Virus record (IMG/VR): IMGVR_UViG_3300021387_001758
Coordinates: 14,388-78,387 of that record
Length of the DNA: 64,000 nucleotides
Direction: 5' to 3' (one strand)
From: a virus
Taxonomy: Duplodnaviria; Caudoviricetes
The position numbers and the translations under genes were made by a program. The notes under the pieces were generated by a model. It was not told the origin of the DNA, searched no databases, and was given only the letters and a program-made list of their open reading frames with translations. Shown here in pieces: positions 24,567-28,665 of this stretch (its first letter is position 1; the number at the start of each line of letters is the position of its first letter).

Positions 24567-24614
24567 AAAATAAACTCCTTTCTTAAAGAGCAAACACCCT
24601 TTAATAAATATATA

Positions 24615-25200
24615 ATTAAGAGTCTTTCAACTTACTAACTACTAACGCCACTATATTTGACTAATGGGGAGACATACCCAAGCAATAAGGAGCGACCCTA
24701 TTACTATATGCCCCGCTTGCGCCAAGCCCATAGAGGACTGATTACCTCTACCTTTCAGGTGATATTCGGCAATTTTTTAGAAAAGCAATCTCTCTATCTT
24801 CCTTGCTTCATACCAAATAAATTAATATGCTTGAGTCTTCGCAGATTTACCCTACTCGGAGTTGACATACAAACGGTTATACACAGATTTCTCTGCTTCA
24901 ACTGCAAAACGAATTATTGGCATTTCTTAGGTTTGCCCCTGGGCAGCCAACCCAAAACCTAACTAAGATTCGGCGTTTGCTATTAACAAGCGCTTCTATT
25001 ATTTCGCCCGTTCGTATTCTGTCTTTAGCTCACGTTAGCAGTAGCGCTACACCTTTGGTTTCGGCTTCCAACCTACACGATAGTCGTCACCGCCTATCGC
25101 ACAGCCCCTTAACGAGTATCCCCGTTTCTATGGACTGACCGCCCTTTCGGGTTGTTTCGGTGTACCTCAGCACTGCAATCAGCAACTCTTCACTGAGTTC
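24615..25200 (-). ncRNA. Candidate large structured ncRNA (about 580 nt; ROOL/GOLLD-like context)
   Basis: No credible ORF; several GNRA-capped hairpins; sigmaA promoter upstream; lies within the tRNA array. Confidence 0.55.
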
Positions 25201-25423
25201 TTATTTATATATTTATTAAAGAGTGTTTCTCCTTTCTTTACCTTATATAAATATTATACCGAAAATTTGGATTTTCGTCAAATTTTCAGAAATATTTTTC
25301 TCTAAAAATTTTATCTTGTTTAAAGGCTTTTGTTTATCGGTACGCCACAAGAGCCTTAACTCCCGCCACTACCCTACGTTTACCGTACAGACCCTCTCAA
25401 GCGAGCGCCAGTTAGTGGATTGA

Positions 25424-25498: not shown

Positions 25499-25643
25499 AT
25501 ATAAGTGGCATATTTTCCCCATATGCCGGAAGGGCGAGTTTAACGGCCCTCGCGCCGCCTATTGATTATGCCCTCAACAGGATAAGAGCTGTGGTGCGCC
25601 TGACTGGAGTCGAACCAGCACGATCTCACAATCGAGGGATTTT

Positions 25644-26381
25644 CCTGCTACTCCATGTTGCCATGGCCGCGTCACCGCGTTGTAGTCTGGACTTTCTCTT
25701 CACCATGCGTTAATACGTTTAGGTGCGCGCCGTCAAGTCTCTACACGTTCCTCATTTGAGGCTTCGCTCGGGATTGTCCACGTGGGAGTTTCCCCGAATT
25801 TGACGCGATTCACATGGGAGTTTCCAACCCAAGTGCTCTATTTTATATTTTTGGTTTTATATGTATCAGTAAAATAATGACAATTAGGACAAAGTATTTC
25901 GAGATTATCTAAATGATTATTATTTTTATTGCCATCTTTATGATGTAACTCTAATGGAATAGGATTACCCAACCACTCAGTCAAGCCACAACGGCAACAT
26001 TTTTTCTCGAAAAATCCTTCGGCAAATAATCTATTTCTTAGTTTAAAAGAAGTAATTGCTTGTTCATTATTCAAATATTTTTCTATTGGAGTTCGATATT
26101 TTCCAATATTTTTTGTGTGTGCTTGACCAGTAAAATGAGAAGTATCAAAATTATATTTCTCACACATCTCTTTTATAGTCTTAATAGCAGAACCACCATC
26201 TGGATTATATCCTACTTTATTAGCTAACTCTCTAAAAGATTCACTCTCAGCACACATTACTGATAACTGTTCAACAGTAAATTTTTCATACTTTTTCATA
26301 CCTTTTCTCCTCTTATCTCTCTACTTATAAGTAGAAAAAAGGCAGACTAAATATAAAAAATTAAACCAAACCTATATCGAA
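25644..26381 (-). mobile_element. Group I intron (738 nt) with HNH ORF in the 5' (P1-loop) region
   Basis: AAATTCGGGGAA, AATCCCGAG, GTAGAGACT and AAGAGAAAGTCC core elements all downstream of the ORF; terminal G. Confidence 0.88.
25838..26299 (-). CDS. Intron-encoded HNH homing endonuclease
   Basis: CCRC...LELHHKDGNKNNN...LCPNCH. Confidence 0.85.
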   Translation of the reverse strand: MKKYEKFTVEQLSVMCAESESFRELANKVGYNPDGGSAIKTIKEMCEKYNFDTSHFTGQAHTKNIGKYRTPIEKYLNNEQAITSFKLRNRLFAEGFFEKKCCRCGLTEWLGNPIPLELHHKDGNKNNNHLDNLEILCPNCHYFTDTYKTKNIK

Positions 26382-26422
26382 AAGTCCCTTGCGTCTGCCT
26401 ATTCCGCCACAAGCGCGCAGTT

Positions 26423-26705: not shown

Positions 26706-26786
26706 TGGTGGAGTCGATGGGAATCGAACCCATGTCCGAAACACTGCACTTTGGCCTTGATGCCCCGTCGAAACCATTCCGACCCC
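26706..26786 (-). ncRNA. ssrA: Miniature tmRNA: tRNA-like domain only (81 nt)
   Basis: 5' GGGGTCGGAATGGTTTCGACGGGG and 3' TTTCGGACATGGGTTCGATTCCCATCGACTCCACCA; G3:U70 pair; short loop in place of the mRNA-like domain. Confidence 0.8.
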
Positions 26787-26844
26787 ATAGAAGAAGGAGC
26801 TGAACGCTCCTTTCTTATATACCATATAGACAATGGTACGTAGG

Positions 26845-27349: not shown

Positions 27350-27735
27350 GGAACTTTGGACGCATCCTTAGTTCCTAGGCTTACTCCGAAGAGATAGGCC
27401 TCTATTCTTCATTTGCTACAACTTCGAGTTCGTTCCACGGATCCTTTCTCTATATTTCCGAAATTCTTGTGGTGATCAAATCCACGGTGAGTATTGTTGT
27501 ATCGCATCCGTCCCTTTCGGAGACGCGACCTGTTGCTTCAGGCGACTCTCTCATAGACATTGTTCCGGAACTGCCTATGTTGGATTGTTGTATTTTATTG
27601 CAAACGCACTCCCACTTTACTCAAGGCTTGTGACTTGCACGGCCTAAACCTCTGTTTAAGCTTGATGGCGTGGTTACGTTTAGCATCGAGAGGGGAGAAA
27701 AGGAAAGGAAGTAAGATTTATCTCCCCTCTCTTAA
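27350..27735 (-). ncRNA. Candidate structured ncRNA block (about 380 nt)
   Basis: Follows a TTGACA-N17-TATAAT promoter; 5' hairpin GAGAGGGGAG/CTCCCCTCTC; GNRA hairpin GTCTCC-GAAA-GGGAC. Confidence 0.4.
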
Positions 27736-27786
27736 CTTTCTATATATATTATAGCAAAGTTTTATAATTTTGTCAAAATTTCTTTC

Positions 27787-28589: not shown

Positions 28590-28665
28590 TGGTGGAGAAT
28601 AGGAGACTCGAACTCCTGACCCCCTGCGTGCAAAGCAGGTGCTCTCCCATCTGAGCTAATTCCCC
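28590..28665 (-). tRNA. tRNA-Ala(TGC)
   Basis: Cloverleaf, G3:U70. Confidence 0.93.

Follow-up and report, generated by a model that had tools for sequence, protein, structure and literature searches.

In the 64,000-nt stretch of uncultured phage DNA analyzed here (the window), the minus strand carries at positions 26706-26786 an 81-nt gene that consists of nothing but the tRNA-like domain (TLD) of a transfer-messenger RNA (tmRNA), and which we call the mini-tmRNA. An Rfam search of the whole window assigned the gene to the tmRNA family RF00023 with 75.9 bits and E 1e-27, where the gathering score is 47; the family model aligned end to end with the gene, 13 nt standing for 306/374 internal model positions. 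Our own covariance model of the short form (R1, described below) scored it at 67.0 bits (E 1.5e-13). The 5' end of the RNA reads GGGGUCG...GGUUUCGAC, and its first seven nucleotides, GGGGUCG (RNA 1-7; 26780-26786), hold the G3 of the G3:U70 pair and form the 5' strand of the acceptor stem, with seven of seven pairs to the 3' strand CGACUCC (RNA 71-77; 26710-26716), which contains U70. The D-loop analogue GAAUGGUUUCGAC that follows (RNA 8-20; 26767-26779) shows the conserved GG and the UUCGAC signature and fits the Rfam consensus cuGGaUUCGAC. Helix P2a is made of GGGGCAU (RNA 21-27; 26760-26766) and GUGUUUC (RNA 43-49; 26738-26744), the region of the latter strand, UUUCGGAC, fitting the consensus cuuucGGAC, and between the two strands lies the apical element CAAGGCCAAAGUGCA (RNA 28-42; 26745-26759), an A-rich bulge with a small hairpin, GCC-AAAG-UGC. 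The GGAC junction (RNA 50-53; 26734-26737) is the partner of GAC in a G.A/A.G/C-G stack (the Rfam structure line sets GAC against GGA), and it leads into the T arm, AUGGG-UUCGAUU-CCCAU (RNA 54-70; 26717-26733). Direct reading of the sequence gives a discriminator A and an encoded CCA at the 3' end (RNA 78-81; 26706-26709). All features of a TLD are therefore present in this minus-strand gene, namely GG..UUCGAC, the GAC/GGAC stack, P2a, and the T arm GGGUUCGAUUCCC, and the conserved letters all match.

The original prediction, made from the letters alone and silent on the strand, had described a non-permuted tmRNA reduced to its TLD and lacking a tag reading frame, and every structural element that it listed could be located, including G3:U70, the GGGGCAT/GTGTTTC helix, the 15-nt loop, and the total length of 81 nt. 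Only those 15 nt separate the P2a strands, so that the mRNA-like domain is missing together with its resume codon and tag frame; a stop codon is absent from all three frames, and there is therefore no tag frame. Pseudoknots PK1-PK4 and helix 5 are likewise lacking, and the gene cannot be read as a full-length SsrA, since the mRNA-like domain, pseudoknots, and helix 5 are all missing from its 81 nt. A two-piece, permuted tmRNA was rejected because the halves are contiguous and in normal order (5' then 3') and the permuted families all scored below threshold in the window. The proposal that the RNA might work in trans with a separate template found no support, as neither the window nor the 78-kb record from which it derives contained a coding piece or a second or permuted tmRNA above the Rfam threshold. 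Of the two programs named in the original prediction as a check, Rfam thus returned the match given above, and ARAGORN made no call at this locus, although it called 21 tRNAs in the window. With no such call, and with tmRNA as the best match within its Rfam clan, an identity as tRNA-Ala was also rejected; a genuine tRNA-Ala(UGC) sits at 28590-28665. The folding energy of the single sequence equaled that of its shuffles (z = -0.07), and the minimum-energy fold missed the T arm; it is thus the covariance model and comparison with other sequences, rather than thermodynamics, that support the fold. The locus 26706-26786 is a tmRNA TLD without a tag frame.

The gene belongs to a tRNA island of 22 tRNA genes, 21 of them called by ARAGORN and the other a split tRNA-Leu. 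Along the minus strand, the order is a promoter, a twister-P1-like element, tRNA-Met, a spacer of about 480 nt, the mini-tmRNA, 31 nt, and ORF83. The candidate promoter (27748-27776, minus strand) reads TTGACA-17-TATAAT with a TG and matched the consensus at 12/12 positions in a promoter scan for the sigma-70 type; judged by this arrangement, it may drive a unit running from tRNA-Met to the mini-tmRNA. The element resembling a twister-P1 ribozyme lies between the promoter and tRNA-Met (27603-27680, minus strand) and scored 40.1 bits where the cut-off is 67.2 (E 6e-7 for a 1.4-kb search), with nearly all conserved letters fitting and two departures. A hairpin with a T-rich run is found directly upstream of the mini-tmRNA, at about 26787-26813, and the mini-tmRNA itself ends 31 nt before a ribosome-binding site and ORF83 (83 aa), which matched no family and had no homologue at other mini-tmRNA loci.

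Beyond ORF83, the same strand continues with the split tRNA-Leu(UAA), tRNA-Gln, a promoter, a ROOL RNA, and tRNA-Asn. The tRNA-Leu(UAA) gene (25592-26416, minus strand), missed by ARAGORN, is split by a group I intron; its exon 1 (26416-26382) and exon 2 (25643-25592) join into a clean 87-nt tRNA-Leu(taa). The 738-nt intron (26381-25644) contains an HNH homing-endonuclease reading frame (26299-25838) and an Intron_gpI core (25854-25665) scoring 47.3 bits against a cut-off of 50 (E 1.5e-10), all on the minus strand. It is inserted between U34 and A35, which we take to be the site of the classic cyanobacterial and plastid tRNA-Leu intron. The distance from the mini-tmRNA to the ROOL RNA downstream (24602-25221, minus strand; 305.7 bits) is 1.5 kb.

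The source record is linear, 78,387 bp long, and about 66% complete. It encodes a Dit tail protein, a topoisomerase II, a ligase, a sigma factor, and a 1,994-aa tail-module reading frame of tape-measure size; the phage, with its Dit-type (siphovirus-like) tail gene, probably infects a Firmicute. Its topoisomerase gene reached at most 32.5% identity to any cultured phage, the neighboring 603-aa protein had no relative in viral contigs, and a BLAST search of the region against cultured phages matched only the tRNA-Met gene. Genes for SmpB, ArfB/RF-1, Pth, and a tyrosine integrase were absent from the 78 kb of this record.

Our scan of viral contigs revealed that the short form is widespread in phages, with more than 100 sequences recovered by a single pattern. 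UUCGAC, GGAC, and the T-loop core, at a spacing of 15-45 nt, were all that it specified; the acceptor stem, the outer T stem, P2a, and the GG of the D-loop analogue were left unconstrained. The pattern found at least 120 loci, and the matches listed comprised 100 distinct sequences of 66-98 nt, mostly 78-85 nt, among which the scan parse counted seven of seven acceptor pairs in 94, G3:U70 in 97, and a discriminator A in 96. Within the family, again for the matches listed, the three outer pairs of the T stem were 100% paired with three to five pair types each, and the first six P2a pairs were 84-99% paired, using all six standard pair types between them. A plain MAFFT alignment analyzed with RNAalifold gave the T arm only, because the 5' ends were misaligned, and was replaced by a realignment of 98 matches to R1, a model trained on 31 cleanly aligned sequences whose structure had been written by hand. 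In the 97 distinct aligned rows, standard pairs occupied 96.5% of the structure cells, compared with 67.0% after shuffling and 42-51% when the partners were slid; the covariation score was 0.688 against 0.134, and double-sided changes occurred in all four helices. Helix 2 (P2a) was 93.9% paired, six of its seven pairs changing on both sides.

The same alignment separates the near-invariant positions from the variable ones. G1-C72 and G2-C71 were present in 97/97 rows and G3-U70 in 96/97, the discriminator was A in 98/98 sequences of the family alignment, and the two positions of the D-loop-analogue GG were G in 91/97 and 95/97; acceptor pairs 4-6 covaried. An encoded CCA occurs in only about one third of the family, the first base after the discriminator being C in 93/98 and the next two variable (alignment columns 131-134). 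At E <= 1e-4, R1 made 98 matches over 889 kb containing more than 140 tRNA genes, all in loci of pattern hits or known carriers and all but one on the pattern-hit site itself, the exception being a weaker second copy (42.8 bits) at 5-84 of contig L074. An Rfam batch placed 14 mini-tmRNAs above the tmRNA cut-off (51-79.5 bits), and the 15th locus of the batch, L053, gave no tmRNA match.

After P2a, the family shares an apex composed of (U/G)AAAR, a small CC...GG hairpin (commonly CCG-CAYG-CGG), and a purine. In the family alignment, this apical helix 3 was 89.8% paired, with double changes in all three pairs. The Rfam tmRNA consensus at the same point has a GAa bulge followed by the C-rich 5' strand of P2b (gcGAacaCCCC), and because of this resemblance, we read the apex as the P2a/P2b junction with the first P2b pairs, capped by a loop. 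That these sequences have kept the apex suggests that the P2a/P2b junction matters. The window has a variant, AAGG-CC-AAAG-UG-C, in which two of the three model pairs form. The variant pattern AANNCC-RAAG-NG was found in 83 metagenome contigs (64 distinct sequences), the nearest being 88% identical; seven of seven acceptor pairs formed in 61 of the 62 complete sequences, and the outer hairpin pair appeared as G-C, C-G, and U-A.

The original prediction had also proposed looking in related phages, and the same short form was indeed found in relatives with 30-77% protein identity. These carriers, comprising L051 (ligase module, 30-59% identity), L079 and L009 (HNH endonuclease, 77%), L088, and L101, have it inside tRNA arrays, and no full-length tmRNA was detected in the stretches of them examined. 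Compensatory changes distinguish the RNA of the window from that of L051 in the acceptor stem, in the T stem, and in P2a. In addition, two contigs of Christensenella metagenome-assembled genomes (MAGs) in a gut catalogue carried the variant of the window within tRNA arrays, these being the only bacterial genomes found with it. Both MAGs have a separate 389- or 390-nt tmRNA with a TLD clearly unlike the mini form, which is therefore not a recent copy of the Christensenella tmRNA; the contigs could be phage DNA that was binned with these genomes. Genuine mini-tmRNAs were present in 2/151 genomes sampled from the same class, the other matches being tRNA-sized or short and scoring no more than 39 bits. 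The mini-tmRNA is mainly a phage trait.

One bacterial chromosome of the sampled class (G042:C1:2620936-2657109; loci L157 and L158) carries three copies inside 36 kb, each with its own intrinsic terminator. One is intact, one has UUCAUC in place of UUCGAC, and one has in addition lost the acceptor 3' strand. Two of the copies are situated just upstream of 98.7%-identical four-gene cassettes, beside IS21 genes, each cassette comprising a MoxR-type AAA ATPase, a DUF2201 VWA/metallopeptidase, and two unknown genes. This MoxR-AAA/DUF2201-VWA cassette was considered as a general partner of the RNA and rejected, as no homologue lies beside any phage copy. Two cultured phages also carry the gene, in both cases unannotated in GenBank. 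Streptomyces phage BRock has an 81-nt mini-tmRNA (KX925554.1, about 97140-97220; L143 252-332; 64.5 bits) between tRNA-Val and tRNA-Cys. The gene of Stenotrophomonas virus Jojan60 is 83 nt long (ON045087.1 37722-37804; L139 293-375; 61.8 bits) and overlaps in part with a "hypothetical protein" CDS immediately upstream of the primase gene.

When all reading frames within 3 kb of 117 mini-tmRNA loci were clustered, no partner protein was shared across the loci; the neighbors were clade specific, and even the largest cluster took in no more than 16 of the 96 distinct RNAs. Small viral contigs of one clade (L107, L061, and about 24 more) have the mini-tmRNA on the coding strand downstream of the portal gene, with the head-maturation protease gene on one side, the major capsid gene on the other, and no other tRNA in the flanks examined; in another clade it stands beside a DnaB-like helicase, a primase, and endonuclease VII. 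In the lineage of the window, ROOL RNA and mini-tmRNA share one strand in nine contigs (the window and eight related ones), at 24-27 nt in L051, L189, and L217, with one tRNA in between in L191, L195, and L169, and at 6 kb in L199 and L222. Elsewhere, an EGFOA RNA was seen 180 nt after the mini-tmRNA (L102 5398-5503) and a RAGATH-24 RNA at L104 871-1073. Because the 78-kb record holds no phage SmpB, ArfB, or Pth and no partner recurs across the 117 loci, the mini-tmRNA would have to act with host factors.

A TLD-only tmRNA has a published phage precedent. The tmRNA of Mycobacterium phage DS6A was classed as "TLD only" by Hudson, Lau and Williams in 2014 (PMC4131195; tmRNA Website tmID 11587), and a 2025 database paper (PMC11915505) repeats the entry and adds plastid and mitochondrial tmRNAs without a coding sequence (CDS). 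The original prediction had named only mitochondrial precedents, although DS6A was already in print. We located the DS6A RNA at JN698994.1 28478-28560 (83 nt; 59.7 bits on R1). Like the RNA of the window, it is phage encoded, in one piece, about 80 nt long, and free of a tag frame, with an acceptor stem containing G3:U70, a D-loop analogue, P2a, and a T arm, and it shares the A-rich bulge and small CC/GG hairpin in an apex reading AAAACC-GCAC-GCGG. Because DS6A has the family apex, we place the two RNAs in one family, and by its sequence, the gene of the window is a TLD-only tmRNA of the same kind. The two differ in their Rfam tmRNA scores (75.9 bits in the window versus 43.2 in DS6A, which falls under the Rfam cut-off), in GGUCGAC and GCAC of DS6A versus UUUCGAC and GGAC, and in the CCG-CACG-CGG apex of DS6A versus the CC-RAAG-NG variant; the gene of the window, unlike that of DS6A, has an encoded CCA, lies in a 22-tRNA island with a ROOL RNA, and comes from an uncultured phage. 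The novelty of the single gene is therefore low, since both the DS6A TLD-only tmRNA and inhibition by molecules of this sort have been published. Our limited literature search found no published description of a widespread phage family of TLD-only tmRNAs.

Other known molecules share parts of this architecture. Standard SsrA (RF00023) agrees with the mini-tmRNA position by position in the acceptor stem, G3:U70, GG...UUCGAC, the GAC/GGAC stack, P2a, the T arm, and ACCA, but it has in addition a resume codon, a tag frame, a stop codon, four pseudoknots, and helix 5. The CDS-less organellar tmRNAs, known from jakobid mitochondria and, at about 65 bp, from Mallomonadaceae plastids (PMC11915505), are alike by description in retaining little beyond the TLD and in being tag free, presumably with SmpB; they are the only tmRNA of their compartment and vertically inherited, whereas the RNA of the window is borne by a phage in a cell expected to own a full tmRNA. 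The synthetic TLD constructs (Mao 2009; Shimizu and Ueda 2006; Neubauer 2012) have the same parts, a TLD with a loop-closed P2a, but they are engineered truncations, whereas the window holds a natural gene with a conserved apex outside the construct design. Such constructs bind SmpB and EF-Tu, enter the A site, accept peptide, and on over-expression inhibit tmRNA (PMC4131195, PMC3895274, PMC8363625). A TLD-like molecule strongly inhibits E. coli tmRNA in both chargeable and unchargeable form (Mao et al. 2009, via PMC4131195 and PMC11915505), peptide can be passed in vitro to a TLD-only RNA (Shimizu and Ueda 2006, via PMC3895274), and a truncated tmRNA has been crystallized with SmpB and EF-Tu on the ribosome (via PMC8363625).

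By analogy with such molecules, we lean, with confidence only somewhat above even, toward a role in which the charged mini-tmRNA binds host SmpB and EF-Tu, competes with the host tmRNA, and lowers SsrA tagging. The RNA would be excised from the transcript of the phage RNA island by host tRNA-processing enzymes, and host alanyl-tRNA synthetase (AlaRS) would charge it with alanine through G3:U70 and the discriminator A. It would then bind host SmpB and, once charged, EF-Tu, so that SmpB and the vacant A sites of stalled ribosomes would be contested between it and the full-length tmRNA of the host. As the mini-tmRNA lacks a template, no SsrA degradation tag would be added, and the net effect during infection would be that fewer nascent chains are tagged by trans-translation, including phage proteins made from broken mRNAs. 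The behavior of comparable molecules leads us to infer that the mini-tmRNA binds SmpB, is charged, enters the ribosome, and inhibits tagging; we also assume that it is matched to the SmpB and AlaRS of its host. Charging looks to be under selection, given an alanine identity set that is near-invariant while acceptor pairs 4-6 are free to vary. Because this set is so constant even though the published inhibition needs no charging, it is suggested that the mini-tmRNA reaches the ribosome. This pattern suggests that a purely passive SmpB sponge is disfavored, and charging fits either active competition at the A site or a productive, tag-free rescue of ribosomes, the latter at least as well. The three chromosomal copies in G042 are odd if the RNA strongly inhibits the rescue system of the very cell that carries it, barring tight regulation.

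Such a rescue is the main rival to competition with host tmRNA, and we consider it possible but distinctly less probable. Here, the charged mini-tmRNA, together with host SmpB and EF-Tu, would accept the nascent chain and add one or several alanines, the ribosome being freed by drop-off or by host release factors; the benefit would be more ribosome recycling amid mRNAs broken by host and phage nucleases rather than less tagging. Across about 100 diverged sequences, both the AlaRS identity elements and a full acceptor stem are almost invariant, which suggests that charging is required, and a TLD-only RNA takes up peptide in vitro (Shimizu and Ueda 2006, via PMC3895274). A CDS-less tmRNA is also the sole tmRNA of some mitochondria and plastids, where it is thought to be helpful (PMC11915505), and the gene of the window lies within a 22-tRNA island resembling a translation-support kit. 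The record, however, holds no ArfB/RF-1 or Pth release gene, and the sole in vivo datum on such a molecule is tmRNA inhibition (PMC4131195). A bolder version of the active role, to which we give a low probability, would make the mini-tmRNA a charged player in a translation-takeover kit of the phage, one that leaves alanine-only chain ends (single alanines or alanine tails) via host SmpB and EF-Tu, uses the P2b-stump hairpin as a specific recognition element, and, in this lineage, is perhaps co-expressed with the ROOL RNA and works beside it.

A role away from the ribosome appears improbable. The RNA could be a processing mark for RNase P or RNase Z, a decoy for nucleases or defense sensors, or an alanine donor for tRNA-dependent transferases, and the positions of the gene offer some encouragement: it is often wedged between protein genes of the same strand, as in the window, 31 nt before a ribosome-binding site and reading frame, and in the head protease/capsid clade; in 94 of the 117 loci, the flanks examined contain no tRNA besides it; and in the lineage of the window, it repeatedly adjoins ROOL RNA. 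A processing mark or generic decoy, however, would have no use for G3:U70, the P2a/P2b junction, the GAC/GGAC stack, or the D-loop analogue peculiar to tmRNA, all of which are conserved, and no recurrent gene for a tRNA-dependent transferase lies nearby that would suit an alanine donor. Less probable still is a dead remnant, left either by deletion of the central part of a phage tmRNA or, at an attachment site, as a piece of a host tmRNA gene. Integration at tmRNA genes is common, and pieces of such genes can end up in phages (PMC9004378), but attachment-site fragments comprise the 3' part only, whereas both ends are present and paired here, and no tyrosine integrase was found in the 78-kb record. 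Compensatory changes across about 100 distinct sequences, the retention of the short form in distant relatives, and its clear dissimilarity to the full-length tmRNA of the Christensenella MAGs, the only genomes found that could represent a host, also speak against decay. An assembly mis-join that dropped the middle of a full-length tmRNA, which the original prediction had named with recent deletion as the case against itself, can be dismissed as having almost no likelihood, since the same architecture and length recur in independent assemblies of many samples, the cultured phages DS6A, BRock, and Jojan60, and two MAGs, and the short form is found in distant phages and about 100 viral sequences with compensatory changes.

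Trans-translation is the main route by which bacteria rescue ribosomes and control the quality of their products. To the single published phage example, our analysis adds that the type is widespread, that it conserves a P2b stump and keeps its alanine-charging signals, and that it has been missed by ARAGORN and left unannotated in GenBank. The cultured carriers make the role of the mini-tmRNA directly testable. If the proposed competition with host tmRNA is true, the mini-tmRNA would be a ready-made tool for switching off SsrA tagging, and a phage RNA that redirects or blocks trans-translation would represent a compact, ribosome-level takeover of the host.
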